Shown here one piece after another: positions 25,191 through 37,465 of a DNA stretch of 42,903 bases. The stretch is from a virus, in IMG/VR virus record IMGVR_UViG_3300045988_034633; one strand, given 5' to 3'. Each line of letters begins with the position of its first letter. Positions within the stretch are counted from its first letter, which is position 1. Both the position numbers and the translations under genes were made by a program. The notes below the pieces were generated by a model. That model was not told where the DNA came from and did no database searches. It was given only the letters and a program-made list of their open reading frames with translations.

Positions 25191-25818
25191 AGGTGCTGAT
25201 CGCTTGCGAGGAATCGCAGGAAGTCTGTAAGGCGTTCCGGGCAAAAGGTCACGAAGCTTACTCATGCGACATCCAAGAACCGTCCGGCAGGCATCCTGAG
25301 TGGCACATCCTCGGGGATGCTCTCAAGGCTATTGAGGGGGGCAAGTCGTGACGATGGACGGCGTAACGCATGACGTTGGCAAGTGGGACTTGCTTATTGC
25401 ACACCCGCCTTGCACATACCTGTCGAACGCTGGCGCACGGTTCCTTTACCCGAAAGGCGTTCTGAACGAACAGCGATTGCGTAAAGGTTTGATGGCAAAG
25501 GATTTCTTTCTGCGCTTCTTGTGGGCTGATATTCCGAAGATTGCGGTTGAGAATCCGATTCCGTCATCCGTTTACTGCTTGCCAAAATACACGCAGACCA
25601 TTCAGCCGTACCAGTTCGGACACCCGTTCAAAAAGAAAACGTGCCTTTGGTTGAAAGGTCTGCCGGAGCTTGAACCAACCGATGAAATTCCGCTAGAACA
25701 ATGCGAAAGCACGAAGGTTGCCGGGAACTGGTTCAATCATGGCGGTAAAGACCGACAAGCGAACAGAGCAAAAACATTTCCTGGCATTGCAAAAGCAATG
25801 GCCGAACAATGGGGGTGA
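25187..25818 (+). pseudogene. C5 cytosine methyltransferase-like gene split into two frames at a G6 tract
   Basis: ORF1 is MKVLIACEESQ...LKAIEGGKS* (stop at 25349-25351). ORF2 carries WDLLIAHPPCTYLS and IAVENP motifs. One extra G in 25336-25341 would fuse them. Confidence 0.65.
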
Positions 25819-28476: not shown

Positions 28477-28549
28477 ACTCCGGTAGCTCAAGTGGTAGAG
28501 CAGCGGTCTCCAAAACCGCATGTTGCAGGTTCGAGTCCTGCCGGGAGTG
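28477..28549 (+). tRNA. trnW: tRNA-Trp (anticodon CCA)
   Basis: Hand-folded cloverleaf with A1-U72, G73, anticodon arm gcggt-CTCCAAA-accgc and T-arm gcagg-ttcgagt-cctgc. There is one G6-G67 mismatch. Confidence 0.8.
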
Positions 28550-28671
28550 CTTGCGTGCCCTATGAGGGGGCCGCGCAATAGCGGGGCATCCGGCCGCGAA
28601 AGTTCCGGATGCAGCAGCGCCCACCGTTTGACGCCTGTCCAACAAACTGAATGCACGGGCGCTGCTTATAT

Positions 28672-31958: not shown

Positions 31959-32993
31959 GTGATTTCTGACCGTGACCGCATCTCTACCCGTCAACTGAAC
32001 CGCCTGCGCCGCCGTATCCTGCGGGTGTACGGCACTGCCCGCCGGGAGATGCAGAAGCAGCTGACCGAATTTCTGGCAAAGTACAAAGCGCTGGACGAGC
32101 GAAAGCGGGCGCAGCTGGATGCAGGCGAGATCACCGAGGACGACTACCGCATCTGGCTGCAAAATCAGGTCTTTCAGTCCGATTTGATGCACGCCAAGCT
32201 GGACGGAATCACGCAGACGTGCACCACAGCCCAAGAGACGGCCTACAAGCTGGCCCGGGACGAGCAGTACAATATCTTTTCCTTTGGCGCAAACTGGGCT
32301 TTCTACGAGCTGGAACAGGCCGCAGGCGTGACGTTCGGGCTGACCCTGTACAACACCGAAGCGGTCAAGCTGCTGCTGAAGAAGAACCCCCGCATGGTGC
32401 CCAACAAGCGCATCAAGAGCGAGAGCAACCGCACCTATGATGCCCGGGTGTTCAACCGCTACGTCATGCAGGGCATCGTGCAGGGCAAGAGCGTCCACGA
32501 CATCGCCGTGCAGGCCGTCAACGGCATGGCAGACACGGAGATTCACTGGGCCATGAACAACGCCATCACAGCCCTTACCAGTGCCCAGAACGCCGGGGCT
32601 TTGCAGCAGATGCGAAACGCCCAGGCTTTGGGCATCGAGGTCAAAAAGCGGTGGAACTCCACCCACGACTACCGCACCCGTGAGATGCACCGCCTGCTTG
32701 ACCAGCAGACGGCAGAACTTGACGAGCCGTTCAAGGTCATGGGATACGAGATTCAGCGCCCCGGCGACCCCAACGCAGCGCCGGAGATGGTCTACCACTG
32801 CCGCTGTGTGCTGTCCTCTGCACTTGGCAAGTATCCCCGGCAGAACGCCATGCAGCGGGACAATGTGACCAAAGAGACCACCCCCGTCATGGATTACACC
32901 GAGTGGTATAAATCCAAGGGCGGCAAAGAGAAAGAGCAAATGTGGTGGGCGGAAGAGCGAAAACGCAGAAAGGAGAACGCCAAGAATGAGTAA
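31959..32993 (+). CDS. Head morphogenesis protein (SPP1 gp7 / Mu F-like)
   Basis: ...WNSTHDYRTREMHRLLDQQ...PGDPNAAPEMVYHCRCVL pattern of the MuF family. Position after the portal. Confidence 0.8.
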   Translation: MISDRDRISTRQLNRLRRRILRVYGTARREMQKQLTEFLAKYKALDERKRAQLDAGEITEDDYRIWLQNQVFQSDLMHAKLDGITQTCTTAQETAYKLARDEQYNIFSFGANWAFYELEQAAGVTFGLTLYNTEAVKLLLKKNPRMVPNKRIKSESNRTYDARVFNRYVMQGIVQGKSVHDIAVQAVNGMADTEIHWAMNNAITALTSAQNAGALQQMRNAQALGIEVKKRWNSTHDYRTREMHRLLDQQTAELDEPFKVMGYEIQRPGDPNAAPEMVYHCRCVLSSALGKYPRQNAMQRDNVTKETTPVMDYTEWYKSKGGKEKEQMWWAEERKRRKENAKNE

Positions 32994-33411
32994 ACGTGGC
33001 TCTGGAAGTTCGACAAGGGCAAGCGTTGGGACCGCCAACGAGCACGAGTTTGAATCTTTTGTAAATGGAAAATGGGTCACCGATTACAGCAAAATTGCGG
33101 CAGCAGAGACGAAGAAAGCCGCCGTTGTTGTGGACGGTTCGAGATACAAGAAAACGCATAACGATGTTGTGTCTTTTGTGAAAGAGCAAGTTGGCGTTGA
33201 CCTCAACAAATATCGAAGTGGCGATGGTTCCTCTCCGTCTCACACCACATATTGGGACAAGAGTGGCCCAAAAGTTGCATTTGATCTAAAAGGGATGTCG
33301 TCGAGCGACCGCACAAAGCTTATGCAGCTTGCACAAAAGCCGTTTGGAGTGACGGTCGAACAAGGCGGCGCATGGATTGGCTTTGTTTCGAGAAAAAAGA
33401 AGAAAAAGTAA
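32986..33411 (+). CDS. Leader-sharing cargo protein 1 (MSKRGSGSSTRA...)
   Basis: RBS aaaggaga. The N-terminus is shared with 34046 and 34444. The C-terminus is unrelated and ends in KKKKK. Confidence 0.6.
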   Translation: MSKRGSGSSTRASVGTANEHEFESFVNGKWVTDYSKIAAAETKKAAVVVDGSRYKKTHNDVVSFVKEQVGVDLNKYRSGDGSSPSHTTYWDKSGPKVAFDLKGMSSSDRTKLMQLAQKPFGVTVEQGGAWIGFVSRKKKKK

Positions 33412-33429
33412 GGTTTGGAGGGATGAACC

Positions 33430-34053
33430 GTGATTCTGCCGATGGAAAACACCGAGAAGATGATTTTTCCGGGCGTGGGCAAGTATGGCATCCCTGAAAT
33501 CAAGCCAGAAACGGACATCCGCATCGACAAGCTGGAATGGATCCCGGTCAATTATGCGCTGACGGCCAAAGACAAGGCCACAAAAGGCGTGCATTTTTAC
33601 AAGGACGATTACCAGTTTGAACGGTTCTGGAACAACCCTGACAAATACATTCCGCTTTTGCAGCAGTTCGGCGCGGTATGCTCGCCTGATTTTTCGCTTT
33701 ACAGCGATATGCCGCTTGCGGTGCAGCTTTTCATGCACTACAAAAAGCACTGGCTTGCGGCATACTGGCAGGCGCACGGCATCCACGTCATTCCAACGCT
33801 CTGCTGGTGCGGCGAGCAAAGTTATGAATGGTGCTTTGACGGCGAGCCCAGAAACGCCATCGTGAGCATTTCAAGCCACGGCACACAATCTGACCCATAC
33901 GAAGCAGAGTGCTTTGCCAAACACTGCCGCAAGGCGCTGGAAGTGCTGCAACCAAGCAGTATTTTGTGGTATGGCAAGTGTCCGGCAGAATTTGACTGGA
34001 ACGTGACCAAAATCAAGCCATTTCAATATGAAAGGAGGCACTACCGTGAGTAA
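33430..34053 (+). CDS. DUF4417-like protein
   Basis: RBS ggaggg 7 nt before the GTG. ...GVHFYKDDYQFERFWNNPDKY...SPDFSLYSDMP...HWLAAYWQ pattern that I recall for DUF4417. Confidence 0.5.
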   Translation: MILPMENTEKMIFPGVGKYGIPEIKPETDIRIDKLEWIPVNYALTAKDKATKGVHFYKDDYQFERFWNNPDKYIPLLQQFGAVCSPDFSLYSDMPLAVQLFMHYKKHWLAAYWQAHGIHVIPTLCWCGEQSYEWCFDGEPRNAIVSISSHGTQSDPYEAECFAKHCRKALEVLQPSSILWYGKCPAEFDWNVTKIKPFQYERRHYRE

Positions 34054-34089
34054 AAGAGGTTCGGGCAGCTCCGCAAGAGCTGGCGGCGG
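34031..34089 (+). repeat. 59-bp direct repeat, copy 1 (RBS + first 14 codons)
   Basis: Identical to 34429-34487 except at 34038/34436. Confidence 0.9.
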
Positions 34090-34429
34090 CATGGCAACGC
34101 TCAAAGGAACTGAAAAACAGGTTGAATGGGCTGCAAAAATTCGGGAAACCACAAACAATGCGCTTGACGATTCCATTGCATTTGCAAAAACGCAAACCGC
34201 AAAAATGGGCAAAGACCGCGTGAATGCAGCAGTAGAATGGGCAGAAAAGGCCAAAAGAGAAATCAATTCGACCTCAAGCGCAAGCGAATTGATAGACACC
34301 ATCGGCGCATACATCGGCAGCAAAACAGGAGAATCCGCAAAACAGTCCGCGCTTCTCGGAATCACAAGAACGCTCCAAAGCGGAACGGGAGACCTTGCCA
34401 AGAGACTAAAAAAGGCAAGAGGACTGTAA
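34046..34429 (+). CDS. Leader-sharing cargo protein 2 (VSKRGSGSSARAGGG...)
   Basis: RBS aaaggagg 7 nt before the GTG. Helical C-terminal part. Confidence 0.6.
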   Translation: MSKRGSGSSARAGGGMATLKGTEKQVEWAAKIRETTNNALDDSIAFAKTQTAKMGKDRVNAAVEWAEKAKREINSTSSASELIDTIGAYIGSKTGESAKQSALLGITRTLQSGTGDLAKRLKKARGL

Positions 34430-34487
34430 AAGGAGACACTACCGTGAGTAAAAGAGGTTCGGGCAGCTCCGCAAGAGCTGGCGGCGG
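34429..34487 (+). repeat. 59-bp direct repeat, copy 2
   Basis: See copy 1. Confidence 0.9.
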
Positions 34488-34962
34488 TGGAGCTGGCGCA
34501 GGCGCAAAAGAAAAAGAGCTTTTTACTGTGGGAAAAGATGGTGTGCGGACATACGATGATTCGCAGAAAGAGCCAGGAAAGGAGTGGATGCTTTCTAAAC
34601 ATAGCAACGAAGCTATGAAAGCATTTAGAAGCCTGAGCGATGTTCATTGTGTGTGGAATAAAGGATTTGACGTGCTTGAGGGTGATAAAAAGCCCGTAGG
34701 CATGAAAAGAAGCCAGCAGTGGGACTATCTAAAAAACCACAACATAAACTCTTTTATTCTCAGAGTTCCAGAGGGACAAACAAAAAGAGCGCTCAAGCAA
34801 ATGGAAGACTACGGCTATCATGTTGTTGCAAAACTGGCATCAAATTCAAAAGATAAGCGAATTTTTGATGATAACGAGTTTTATATGTCCAAAAAGAAAA
34901 TGCAGCGGCTTGGATTGGATTTCAAGGTGGAAACCTACTGGAAAAAAGGATGGAAAGGCTGA
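34444..34962 (+). CDS. Leader-sharing cargo protein 3 (VSKRGSGSSARAGGGG...)
   Basis: RBS aaaggaga 7 nt before the GTG. The C-terminal part is encoded by a lower-GC segment. Confidence 0.6.
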   Translation: MSKRGSGSSARAGGGGAGAGAKEKELFTVGKDGVRTYDDSQKEPGKEWMLSKHSNEAMKAFRSLSDVHCVWNKGFDVLEGDKKPVGMKRSQQWDYLKNHNINSFILRVPEGQTKRALKQMEDYGYHVVAKLASNSKDKRIFDDNEFYMSKKKMQRLGLDFKVETYWKKGWKG

Positions 34963-34968
34963 TGCATC

Positions 34969-35421
34969 GTGAACTTTAACTACGACATCAAATTTACCGA
35001 CAACACCCCACGGCTGCTTGAGGCGTTGGACTCATGGGCAAAGCGGGTGCTGACCCTCTGGGGAATGACGGTGCATGACTACGCCCAACTGCTTGTGCCC
35101 ACCGGCACGGCAGACAGCACGGGCATTGAGGGCTATGTGGGCGGTGCGCTCAAGCAGAGCCTGACCTTTGCCCTCGACCTTGCAAAAAAGACCGTGACTA
35201 TTGGCAGCGACCTGTTTTACAGCCTGCTTGTTGAGCTGGGCACGGGAATCTTTGCCGAGAAAGGAAACGGACGCAAAACGCCGTGGGTCTGGAAGGACTT
35301 CAACGGCAAGTGGCACTTTACCCGGGGCATGGCTCCCCGTCCGTTCCTCCGCCCGGCGGTGGAGGATCACATTGACGAGCTGCGAGAGATCGCAGTGGAA
35401 GAAGCGAACAAGGAGGCGTAA
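34969..35421 (+). CDS. HK97 gp10-family protein (unusual position before the scaffold)
   Basis: ...LVELGTGIFAEKGNGRKTPW...APRPFLRPAVE pattern. GTG start. Confidence 0.55.
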   Translation: MNFNYDIKFTDNTPRLLEALDSWAKRVLTLWGMTVHDYAQLLVPTGTADSTGIEGYVGGALKQSLTFALDLAKKTVTIGSDLFYSLLVELGTGIFAEKGNGRKTPWVWKDFNGKWHFTRGMAPRPFLRPAVEDHIDELREIAVEEANKEA

Positions 35422-35424
35422 TTC

Positions 35425-35640
35425 ATGAATTTGGAGAAAATGTTCAAAACGCCAAAAGAAAAGTTCCTGCCCGATGATGTGAAAACTGCGCACTGTGAGG
35501 CAGAAGACCTTTTCCTTGAGCTTGCAACGCAGCTTGACGCACTTCCTGAAAGCCGAGAAAAAAGTCTGTGTATGACAAAATTACAGGAAGCGAAGTTTTG
35601 GGCGGTCGAATGTATCACCAAAGTTGCGCGCAAAAACTAA
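35425..35640 (+). CDS. Small helical protein
   Basis: RBS aaggagg. ...SREKSLCMTKLQEAKFWAVECI motif. Confidence 0.5.
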   Translation: MNLEKMFKTPKEKFLPDDVKTAHCEAEDLFLELATQLDALPESREKSLCMTKLQEAKFWAVECITKVARKN

Positions 35641-35680: not shown

Positions 35681-35753
35681 GCCGCTTTTGCACAACTGGC
35701 AGTGCTCCTGGCTCATAACCGGGGAGTTGCAGGTTCGACCCCTGCAAGCGGCA
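35681..35753 (+). tRNA. tRNA with CAT anticodon (Met elongator, or Ile2 type)
   Basis: Perfect 7-bp acceptor gccgctt/aagcggc, D arm gcac/gtgc, anticodon arm cctgg-CTCATAA-ccggg, and T arm gcagg-ttcgacc-cctgc. Confidence 0.85.
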
Positions 35754-35831
35754 CCGCACCGGCAGCACGTCCGGCAAATAAACCTTATTGCCAAGCATGG
35801 CAGCCCGAGCAAGGGCAGAAAGGACTATCAC

Positions 35832-36422
35832 ATGGCACTCGAACGCAAGACTCTCCGGGCGATTCTGGAAGATGAAACGACTGACACCAGCGGCAAGCTC
35901 AAGAAAATTCTGGACGTGCTGCATGAGGAAACGGACACTTTGCAGAACCAGCTCGATGAGAAGAACGCAGCCCTCGCCAAAGCCGAAAAGGACCGCGACG
36001 CAGCCAACGGCGGCAAGCAGGCCGCTGAAAAGGCACTGACCGACTACAAGGCCAAGCAGACAGCAGCAGCCAGCAAGGCGGCCAAGACCGCTGCGTTTAA
36101 GCAGCTGCTCAAGCAGGCGGGCGTTCTGGAAAAGTACATCGACGACATTGCCGACGACTCCAAGAAGGGCGACGAATTTGCCGCCGGTCTGGAACTGGAC
36201 GCCGACGGCAAGGTGAAAGACGCCGAAAAGCAGCTTTCCAGCATCAAAAACACATGGGGCGGCAAAATTGCCACCACCAAAACCACCGGCGCAAAGGTGG
36301 ACAACCCTCCCACCAGTTACGCCGGGACTTCTCCCGAGGATTTCAAAAAGATGAGCCTTGATGACCGCATCAAGCTCAAGAACAGCAACCCTGAACTGTA
36401 CCAGCAGCTCCGGGCAAAGTAA
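35832..36422 (+). CDS. Scaffolding protein
   Basis: Highly helical K/E/A-rich 196-aa protein immediately upstream of the capsid gene. Confidence 0.7.
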   Translation: MALERKTLRAILEDETTDTSGKLKKILDVLHEETDTLQNQLDEKNAALAKAEKDRDAANGGKQAAEKALTDYKAKQTAAASKAAKTAAFKQLLKQAGVLEKYIDDIADDSKKGDEFAAGLELDADGKVKDAEKQLSSIKNTWGGKIATTKTTGAKVDNPPTSYAGTSPEDFKKMSLDDRIKLKNSNPELYQQLRAK

Positions 36423-36439: not shown

Positions 36440-37465
36440 ATGGCACAGACTGGCACTTTTGGCGGCTTCGACTTCGACGTTGAGGTGTTTGGCGACTACA
36501 TGGCCGAGCAGAACACCATCGACACCAGCATCGAGGCCTCCGGCATCATCAAGGACGACCCCTCCATCATGGGCCTGATCGGCGAAAAGGGCAACGTTGC
36601 AACCATCCCGTTCTACACCGAGCTGGACGCCACGGCGGATAAGCCCCTGAACAACGACGGCAAGACCGACAACACCCCCGCTGAGGTCACTGGAAACAAG
36701 CAGACCACCATGCTCATCCAGCGCATGAAGGCGTGGAAGTCTCAGGACTTCACCAAAGAGCTGACTGGCGCAAACCCGATGCAGCACATCGCAAATCAGG
36801 TCACACACTACTATCAGCAGGTCTGGCAGAATGTGCTTATGACCATCACGGACGCTGTGCTGTCTACTACCGATCTCAAGAAGCACATCTACGACATCAC
36901 CAAGGTTGGCGATGGCAAAGTTACGCCGGAATCCCTGATCTATGCGCAGGAAGCCGCTTTCGGCGACCACGCAATGAGCGGGGGCCTGCTCATCATGCAT
37001 TCCACTGTCTTTGCAAAGTATCAGGCAGCAAATCTCGTCGAGTTTGAAAAGTACACCACTCCGGGCGCTCTGTCTCAGGCTTCTCCGCTGGCACGCATCG
37101 GTGGGATGGTCGTGATCGTAAACAACGCCGTCACTTCCGCATCCATCACCGATGCTTCCATCAACGGCGGCAAGGCCACGACTGCATACAAGACCTATGT
37201 TCTGGGTGAAGGCTCTTTTGTGGGCTGCCGTAAGACCAACTACGAGAATCCCTACTACACCGACTACGACCCTGAAAGCAAGGCCGGCGTCCAGAAGCTG
37301 TACACCAAAGAGGGCCGAGTCATTCACCCCAACGGCATGAGCTTCAAGGTGGACAACGTTGCCGAAGCGTCCCCCAACGACACCGAGCTGAGTGCAAAGG
37401 CCAACTGGGAACGCCGCATGAAGCTGGAGAACATCCGCATCGGCCAGATGCTTTCTCTGGGCTAA
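36440..37465 (+). CDS. Major capsid protein
   Basis: RBS aagtgagg. 341 aa after the scaffold. No protease gene is present. Confidence 0.8.
   Translation: MAQTGTFGGFDFDVEVFGDYMAEQNTIDTSIEASGIIKDDPSIMGLIGEKGNVATIPFYTELDATADKPLNNDGKTDNTPAEVTGNKQTTMLIQRMKAWKSQDFTKELTGANPMQHIANQVTHYYQQVWQNVLMTITDAVLSTTDLKKHIYDITKVGDGKVTPESLIYAQEAAFGDHAMSGGLLIMHSTVFAKYQAANLVEFEKYTTPGALSQASPLARIGGMVVIVNNAVTSASITDASINGGKATTAYKTYVLGEGSFVGCRKTNYENPYYTDYDPESKAGVQKLYTKEGRVIHPNGMSFKVDNVAEASPNDTELSAKANWERRMKLENIRIGQMLSLG

Follow-up and report, generated by a model that had tools for sequence, protein, structure and literature searches.

The IMG/VR virus record IMGVR_UViG_3300045988_034633 is a stretch of 42,903 nucleotides (nt), hereafter called the window, which carries between its MuF-type head gene and its scaffold gene three small genes that share one N-terminal peptide (the leader) and then differ completely, together with a gene of the protein family DUF4417. 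Our preferred reading is a cassette of polymorphic effector (cargo) genes in a temperate Clostridia phage. As judged by comparison with related loci, the leader is modular, its genes are linked to DUF4417, bodies recombine at a junction, the peptide itself is selected, toxin-type bodies occur in relatives, and the cassette always lies inside the late packaging/head block. From this pattern we infer that DUF4417 would recognize the leader and that the tagged proteins would be packaged and delivered.

Leader genes of the window and their DUF4417 partner

The start common to the three open reading frames (ORFs), (M/V)SKRGSGSS(T/A)RA, was read at 32986 (ATG start, MSKRGSGSSTRASVG), 34046 (GTG start, (V)SKRGSGSSARAGGGMATLK) and 34444 (GTG start, (V)SKRGSGSSARAGGGGAGAG). 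When this leader was back-translated into a degenerate pattern, the window held three exact matches against none expected (100 shuffles), and beyond residue 16 the bodies are mutually unrelated in BLAST (best E ~5), in agreement with a sequence-only reading made earlier without database searches, which had noticed one SKRGSGSS(T/A)RA leader on three diverging proteins. ORF calling gives longer ORFs from ATG 34028 and ATG 34237 for the two GTG genes, the starts of which we read as (V)SKRGSGSSARAGGGM (34046) and (V)SKRGSGSSARAGGGG (34444). Since these upstream ATGs are missing from related contigs, in which the leader always stands directly behind its start codon, GTG or ATG, and an AGGAGG precedes that codon by about 9 nt, we regard the GTG starts as genuine.

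The leader starts overlap the stop of the preceding gene (xTGAGTAA), with MuF ending in ...NE and DUF4417 in ...RE; MuF, the 5' flank of what we call slot 1, overlaps the first leader ORF in this way (ATGAGTAA), and slot 2 is the corresponding place behind DUF4417. Between leader copies 1 and 2, 15 of 45 nt differ, which alters just 3 residues, and in the AlphaFold2 model of ORF 1 the leader is disordered (predicted local distance difference test, pLDDT, below 50 for residues 1-21). The 59-bp block reported around the second and third starts was also recovered, as a direct repeat with 1 mismatch (copies A and B in Table 1). Its first part is made up of the final 23 nt of the DUF4417 gene, and copy B is the footprint of a tandem cassette insertion.

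Table 1. Features of the cassette and of its surroundings in the window (aa, amino acids; pI, isoelectric point)
Feature	Position	Strand	Remarks
Leader ORF 1	32986..33411	+	slot 1, body family F1; 141 aa, pI 9.9, C-terminal KKKKK
Leader of ORF 1, MSKRGSGSSTRAS	codons 32986-33024	+	ATG start
DUF4417 gene	33430..34053	+	207 aa; conserved partner, cassette anchor; Pfam PF14386
59-nt module, copy A	34031..34089	+	DUF4417 3' end incl. AGGAGG, GTG start, 14 leader codons
Leader ORF 2	34046..34429	+	slot 2, body family F9; 127 aa, pI 10.0, GTEKQVEWAAKIRE motif; leader (V)SKRGSGSSARAGGG
59-nt module, copy B	34429..34487	+	intergenic here + start of ORF 3; 98% identity to copy A
Leader ORF 3	34444..34962	+	slot 2 tandem, body family F6; 172 aa, pI 9.7
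Short MuF (SPP1 gp7-like) minor head protein	31959..32993	+	PF04233 E 7e-15; PHROG 2468 head morphogenesis E 2e-26
HK97-gp10-like/tail-completion-like	34969..35421	+	PHROG 5 E 5e-13; PF04883 weak; constant 3' flank
Acb2/Tad1 hairpin-domain protein	35425..35640	+	71 aa; PF24729 E 9.4e-11, 42 bits (cut-off 27)
tRNA-Met (CAT)	35681-35755	+	between Acb2-like and scaffold genes
Scaffold	35832-36422	+	Pfam/PHROG matches
Major capsid protein	36440-37465	+	Pfam/PHROG matches; cassette inside head module
tRNA-Trp (CCA)	28477-28550	+	upstream of putative small terminase

Scanning IMG/VR with the degenerate leader pattern returned at least 119 matching stretches, and the counts given below for the SKRGSGSS-type leader hold among the matches listed. 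Leader-like peptides stand directly behind an ATG or GTG in 186 of 188 cases, and leader positions 2-9 (SKRGSGSS) are essentially invariant. The 136 unique leader proteins make up 12 body families of more than one member, none of which BLAST connects with another, all 12 of them 100-190 aa long, with a pI of 9.6-10.9 and mostly with Lys/Arg-rich C-terminal tails. At least 12 unrelated body families carry one leader, and the broader MGGRG leader described below is found on dozens of bodies; what the sequence-only reading had proposed from three genes, a shared N-terminal peptide on variable bodies, is thereby seen to be widespread, and its suggestion to look for SKRGSGSS-type N-termini in other phages was rewarded on all of those 119 or more stretches. 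The leader had been thought undescribed, and our literature search likewise found no relevant occurrence of MGGRG, GGRGSS or SKRGSGSS.

Family F9, to which ORF 2 belongs, was found with the leaders MSKRGSGSS, MSGGGRASGRAGSSSARAGGG, MGGRGGSGG and MGGGGSK, and homologues of F1 bear several leader variants as well as other G/S/K/R-rich ones; F6 has only 12 homologue clusters, none of them fused to other domains, and no Pfam domain. The F9 body begins with L-K/E-G-S/T-E-K-Q-V/I-x-W-A-x-x-I-R, a recurrent module that is also present in F3, F8 and many MGGRG proteins and appears three times in the 398-aa protein P0146. At loci with no leader ORF in slot 1 (e.g. L013, L018, L042 and L048), this place is often taken by a Cys-rich zinc-ribbon-like ORF of 61-77 aa ending in a basic tail (...CPECGRILKKKREPRDEP; ...RTMEGFRKRKKG), a different and untagged type of cargo.

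A DUF4417-like gene had been recognized earlier in the block, and this assignment is secure (PF14386, E 1.5e-53, a score of 181 bits where the cut-off is 28.9, covering positions 4-182 of the 183-position profile). It had been described as merely interleaved, which has to be given up: in the leader-selected IMG/VR loci, 105 of the 109 genes that immediately follow DUF4417 are leader ORFs, making DUF4417 a near-invariant partner, and 169 of 186 leader ORFs lie no more than two genes away from it. The usual order is portal, MuF, (leader ORF or other small ORF), DUF4417, (one or two leader ORFs), gp10-like gene and scaffold. A second phage group has leader ORF (where present), DUF4417 and again leader ORF (where present) upstream of the terminase genes TerS/TerL and not behind MuF; the orders portal-DUF4417-leader ORF-MuF and TerS-DUF4417-leader ORF-TerL were also met with, and in Dorea phage DO134P1 and Roseburia phage Jekyll, DUF4417 and a leader ORF stand before TerS or TerL. 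The pair was thus found at four different positions in packaging modules. The notion of a MuF-linked cassette is right for the window, where the cassette does lie behind MuF, and too narrow in general, with the pair also found before TerS, between TerS and TerL, and between portal and MuF; on the gene orders compared, the constant partner is DUF4417, not MuF.

The reverse test was a genome-wide scan with one MGGRG nucleotide pattern, restricted to ORFs of at least 70 aa (n=102). DUF4417 lies within 3 kb on the same strand for 69 of the 102 MGGRG ORFs, in 49 cases directly upstream and in 7 directly downstream, while the remaining 33 include about 15 evident chance matches in GC-rich non-phage DNA and several ORFs that either run off the locus end or stand just behind TerL. 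Among the MGGRG carriers are the cultured Streptococcus mitis KLC11, Bifidobacterium parmae and Pseudoruminococcus massiliensis.

DUF4417 itself has 1,413 homologues at E <= 1e-5 and no sequence match in the PDB. Its AlphaFold2 model (pLDDT 89) shows an alpha/beta fold with parallel strands, for which Foldseek gives TIM-barrel/TGT matches in the PDB, none of them significant, the best being a tRNA-guanine transglycosylase (TGT; E ~0.1, template modelling score, TM, 0.36-0.41), followed in BFVD, behind true homologues, by a phage 'queuine tRNA-ribosyltransferase' (DpdA-like) that is likewise below significance (E 0.007-0.02, TM 0.45-0.52). DUF4417 is about half the size of TGT/DpdA and has no sequence similarity to them; this likeness of fold is suggestive only, and no genes of 7-deazaguanine synthesis were noticed adjoining DUF4417. 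The ParB-like DpdB works with DpdA, a pairing paralleled by the fusions of DUF4417 to ParB-type domains that we found in Streptococcus and Lactococcus phages. Such fusions to ParB-CTPase-fold domains have been reported as frequent in phages (bioRxiv 10.1101/2025.10.10.680097); the papers listed mention DUF4417 only in passing and assign it no function.

Ten residues (H55, D60, D87, S89, Q114, T123, C135, D137, S148 and Y181) are invariant even in gp1 of mycobacteriophage L5 and in a ParB-DUF4417 fusion. None of the longer DUF4417 homologues is an in-frame DUF4417-cargo fusion. We considered DUF4417 as an immunity protein and rejected this, because it is constant while the bodies vary. L5/D29-like actinobacteriophages (about 420 records, from phages of Mycobacterium and Gordonia) encode DUF4417 at their left genome end, as gene 1 or 2; it is annotated there as 'nuclease' or hypothetical and has no leader-type gene behind it.

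Exchange of bodies and conservation of the leader

Across the IMG/VR loci, which were related through DUF4417 alignment and cover close relatives only (distant ones were taken from genome contigs), DUF4417 is 84-99% identical while the cargo differs. Behind MuF, the leader is of the type ATG...SSTRAS and follows the MuF 3' end; behind DUF4417, it is of the type GTG...SSARAGGG and follows the DUF4417 3' end. Bodies F1, F2, F5, F6 and F7 occur in both slots, each with the leader version proper to the slot. The leader version therefore tracks the slot and not the body, which means that cargo is swapped at the leader/body junction, and the earlier proposal that the identical DNA module acts as a recombination handle is borne out by this.

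In related contigs the 59-nt block precedes slot-2 cargo of many body families. Wherever a second cargo gene stands in tandem, it comes with another copy of the GTG block, which takes in 15-20 nt from the 3' end of DUF4417; this is what the 59-nt repeat of the window represents. A tandem copy of the block was seen in 7 other contigs. The identical 172-aa F6 protein was found in independent samples directly behind DUF4417, behind the 127-aa gene and behind a different gene of 134 aa, and the order 141 aa, DUF4417, 127 aa and 172 aa recurs in an independent ENA assembly (42,923 bp).

The leader DNA exists in 75 distinct 36-nt versions among the same matches. In codons 2-9, pairwise comparison gave 10,435 synonymous against 584 non-synonymous differences (~18:1), in a set that was itself found through the peptide, and the synonymous changes include switches between Ser TCN and AGY and between Arg CGN and AGA; from this synonymous codon variation we conclude that the peptide itself is under selection. 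Codons 2 and 3 are fixed as AGT and AAA (in 68/75 and 75/75 versions, respectively) because the upstream stop overlaps them (xTGAGTAA). The same constraint may decide between Ser-Lys here and Gly-Gly elsewhere.

Divergent DUF4417 homologues (43-76% identity) were collected by exact-protein look-ups and from 80 bacterial genome loci, mostly of Oscillospiraceae, Ruminococcaceae and Lachnospiraceae. At 58 of 86 such loci the ORF at or near the DUF4417 stop starts with M-G-G-R-G-(S/A/G)-x-S-G. In this set M, G2, G3 and R4 are nearly invariant and the GGRG motif stands directly behind the start codon in 109 of 122 cases, while the codons vary freely, with GGC, GGA and GGT in roughly equal shares and Arg written as AGA, CGC or CGA. 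By this comparison, the broader N-terminal leader is MGGRG(S/A/G)xSG, and SKRGSGSS is the form that it takes in one lineage.

In a few relatives the leader is not at the very start. Roseburia phage Jekyll (L408 5103-5375) has NLQFF before it (VVVNLQFF/GGRGGSSG), and so does locus L218 (MVINLQFF/GGRGASFG). Prp is a host protease with the motif NLQFF/A that cleaves L27 and the capsid/scaffold proteins of staphylococcal phages (PMC12324487, PMC5744158). With NLQFF directly before GGRG matching this site, host Prp could expose the leader in Jekyll and L218. At L237 and L282 a Prp-like motif (INMQFFG, INIQLFA) stands behind the leader instead, and the three leaders of the window are without it. A minority of proteins carry GGRG behind a conserved N-terminal domain of ~75 aa (...GKTLExRIxxWxEIxF.../GGRG), so that the motif GGRGSGSG is internal, suggesting either processing or a non-terminal mode of use. 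These proteins (L255, L263, L264, L268, L273 and L283) are the second or third ORF behind DUF4417. GGRG is internal too in gp29 of Streptococcus phage IPP52 (L122 3563-4309), a protein with a JAB-like HNHPxG body that is encoded behind a ParB-DUF4417 fusion.

Gly or Ser behind Met favours removal of the Met. Together with the NLQFF cases and with GGRG behind an N-terminal domain, this suggests that an exposed N-terminal G/S-x-R-G may be the working form of the leader. A mimic of the mature N-terminus of ribosomal protein L27 was considered; the apparent likeness is one of low-complexity sequence. A secretion signal was considered as well and rejected, there being no hydrophobic segment.

The bodies of MGGRG-tagged relatives gave Pfam matches to ADPrib_exo_Tox (E 4e-32), to the glutamine deamidase Gln_amidase/Tox-PL1 (E 1.2e-16) and to DUF6883 (E 1.2e-14), with Ntox24 and zinc peptidases indicated more weakly. 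The profile phrog_595 is matched in its N-terminal two thirds by the MuF of the window and in its C-terminal third by the ADP-ribosyltransferase and Tox-PL1 bodies; these bodies therefore represent, as separate proteins, domains that are found fused to MuF in other phages. The ADP-ribosyltransferase body also matches Alt-like ADP-ribosyltransferase PHROGs. The polymorphic-toxin logic that had been suggested for the window thus finds its counterpart in these ADP-ribosyltransferase and Tox-PL1 domains behind an MGGRG leader. NCBIfam gave nothing for the leader ORFs of the window or for DUF4417. A body is followed downstream by DUF4417, by a further leader ORF or by the gp10-like gene, and none of these obviously varies with the body.

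What the leader may do

We would give a probability of about one half to the following explanation, which is built on gene comparison: the region is a polymorphic effector cassette whose cargo is directed to the virion by an N-terminal tag, with DUF4417 as the probable reader of that tag. Each cargo gene consists of a short, disordered, Gly/Ser/Arg-rich leader and an interchangeable body. The leader DNA, together with the 3' end of MuF (slot 1) or of DUF4417 (slot 2), serves as the 5' homology arm and the gp10-like gene as the 3' flank, and through these arms the bodies are swapped between phages or stacked in tandem. The leader itself would most likely be a routing tag that the conserved, translationally coupled DUF4417 reads, whether by direct contact or indirectly; late effectors would enter the head by means of it, or be placed on the DNA under packaging, and would so be delivered to the next host. 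Leader-tagged effectors would in this way be the free-standing equivalents of MuF-fused effector domains.

Such a cassette has much in common with the MuF polymorphic toxins (Jamet et al. 2017, PMC5576092), namely the portal-MuF head module, the temperate Firmicutes phages, a polymorphism driven by recombination and, in relatives, ADP-ribosyltransferase and papain-fold deamidase domains that are also found at the C-terminus of MuF; the order TerL-portal-MuF-cassette-scaffold-major capsid protein in the window also agrees with their position just downstream of the portal. As is typical of polymorphic toxins and effectors, a conserved N-terminal part is set on many unrelated bodies, with recombination at the junction. 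Unlike in MuF toxins, the effectors here are separate genes with a leader of 12-15 residues and a DUF4417 partner, often away from MuF; the three leader ORFs contain no MuF domain (Pfam, PHROG), MuF being a short gene of its own, and that study describes no such leader or free-standing cargo.

Two further systems invite comparison. In phage T4, a short N-terminal capsid targeting sequence is carried by the small basic internal proteins, which are injected, and by the ADP-ribosyltransferase Alt; their genes are late, their packaging is demonstrated, and the prohead protease gp21 removes the targeting sequence. The leader genes are similar in having a short N-terminal peptide on unrelated small basic proteins and on an ADP-ribosyltransferase, and in being late genes. 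They differ in that there is no sequence similarity, that T4 has no DUF4417 partner and that packaging is here deduced from genes; Pfam and PHROG scans of the head-module genes gave no prohead protease domain. Effectors of the type VI secretion system have dedicated adaptor or chaperone genes upstream (DUF4123, DUF1795/Eag and DUF2169). Here too, a conserved accessory gene stands directly upstream of effectors with a shared N-terminal and a variable toxic C-terminal part, and can be used as a marker for finding them; the setting, however, is a phage head and not contractile secretion, and DUF4417, here a putative partner, is unrelated to those adaptors and looks enzymatic.

Several observations weigh against a virion-routing tag. 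The Roseburia phage Jekyll preprint contains no virion proteomics, nor was any found for another carrier phage. Most IMG/VR loci come from one metagenome dataset and all loci were ascertained via the leader or via DUF4417, and our counts are therefore not unbiased frequencies. The three bodies of the window have no recognizable toxin or anti-defence domain (Pfam, PHROGs, NCBIfam), the model of F1 (pLDDT 65, with a moderately confident alpha/beta core) has no meaningful fold match in the PDB, and no immunity-like gene is evident in the gene maps, though no search was aimed at one. A few genuine-looking leader ORFs, some of them behind TerL, are without a DUF4417 gene in the surrounding 3 kb, so the linkage is strong and not absolute. 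DUF4417, with its invariant His, Asp, Cys and Ser, looks from these residues more like an enzyme than a simple adaptor. Finally, gene 1 of mycobacteriophage L5 (L121 411-1100) is a DUF4417 gene and the gene next to it has no leader; the core activity of DUF4417 need therefore not be leader-specific.

A second explanation, unlikely in our view and still the best of the alternatives, sees in the leader a tag that a DUF4417 enzyme recognizes or uses as its substrate inside the producing cell, without packaging into the virion. The enzyme might modify or process the effectors, or possibly hold them inactive or stable. The tight and translationally coupled linkage of DUF4417 to leader ORFs, the enzyme-like conservation of DUF4417 with its confident alpha/beta model, and an invariant Arg-Gly and several Ser in the leader that could be modified all speak in its favour. 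It accounts less well for genes that always lie in the late packaging/head block and for bodies belonging to types that are otherwise joined to MuF, a virion protein, or to injected enzymes like Alt of T4, and a role just before lysis is harder to rationalize. An intracellular tag is, moreover, compatible with packaging, where the modification could be the loading step.

We attach distinctly less weight to the thought that the proteins of the window are small basic DNA-binding internal proteins, histone-like and co-packaged non-specifically, with the G/S/R-rich N-terminus and the Lys/Arg-rich C-terminus as disordered nucleic-acid-binding arms and DUF4417 as an unrelated DNA-modifying enzyme. 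The internal proteins of T4 are basic, as are all 12 body families with their pI of 9.6-10.9 and tails such as KKKKK, WKRKK and RRKKKK; the ParB-type fusions of DUF4417 in Streptococcus and Lactococcus phages, and nucleic-acid transglycosylases as its best fold matches, could be taken in the same sense. Non-specific arms, however, need no invariant, position-specific extreme N-terminus; the leader relatives include ADP-ribosyltransferase, deamidase and HExxH proteins, many of them without basic tails, and the adjacency to DUF4417 is kept across four genomic positions.

Slightly less probable again is a shared 5' end that works at the DNA level only, as ribosome-binding site, start, translational coupling and recombination site, with a functionless peptide. 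It is true that the 59-nt block starts 15 nt before the GTG and that its duplication goes with that of the cargo, that the overlap with the upstream stop fixes codons 2-3, and that recombination breaks fall just where the leader ends. Yet at least 4 very different nucleotide versions (slot 1, slot 2, F10 type and F2b type) encode one peptide, and to the synonymous excess in codons 2-9, which holds for a set ascertained on the peptide, is added the retention of M-G-G-R-G, with freely drifting codons, next to DUF4417 partners only 43-65% identical, as well as the members in which the motif is preceded by a Prp site or by an N-terminal domain of 75 aa.

More of a long shot is the idea that DUF4417 covalently couples the exposed N-terminus of the effector, or its invariant Arg, to packaged phage DNA or to a head protein, so that the effector is drawn into the next host with the genome; the chemistry could be transglycosylase-like (for DNA) or Cys/His transpeptidase-like (for a head protein), a post-translational equivalent of the MuF-toxin fusion. 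As to the fear of an assembly artefact, raised with the sequence-only reading for the shared 5' end, or of a chimeric contig behind the duplicated block and the tandem genes, exact 59-nt repeats can indeed mislead short-read assemblers and most related contigs are metagenomic, but the gene order of the window recurs in the ENA assembly, the identical 172-aa gene has other surroundings in two other samples, tandem GTG-block cargo genes occur in the 7 further contigs and every ORF is intact, and the three arrangements of the F6 gene dispose of this concern almost entirely.

Should the leader really be a loading tag, it would represent a simple and widespread rule for the proteins that gut Firmicutes phages bring into the next cell. 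DUF4417 followed by an MGGRG or SKRG start would then be a search key to hundreds of uncharacterized effector, toxin and anti-defence candidates; DUF4417 would gain a functional context that extends to gene 1 of L5/D29-like phages and to the ParB fusions of streptococcal prophages, and a short tag would be at hand for putting foreign proteins into phage particles. Should it not be one, cargo exchange at the leader boundary would still illustrate clearly how phages shuffle accessory genes. The module is present in culturable systems, namely phage Jekyll of Roseburia intestinalis L1-82, Dorea phage DO134P1 and Streptococcus mitis KLC11.

Neighbouring genes

The gp10-like gene lies behind the cassette in most related loci. 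Its place inside the head module, upstream of the scaffold gene, is unusual for a neck/tail-completion gene and is constant in related loci. The 71-aa Acb2/Tad1 protein that follows is likely, from its domain match, a sponge for the signalling nucleotides of the cyclic-oligonucleotide-based antiphage signalling system (CBASS) or of Thoeris, and is an accessory protein without the leader; its gene is found at the same place in about 15 related loci. In Dorea phage DO134P1 a tRNA-Met gene stands directly behind the pair of DUF4417 and leader ORF (L409 5615-5686). Additionally, the plus-strand ORF at 25348-25818 of the window, with the motif AHPPCTYLSNAG, looks by eye like a C5 cytosine DNA methyltransferase.

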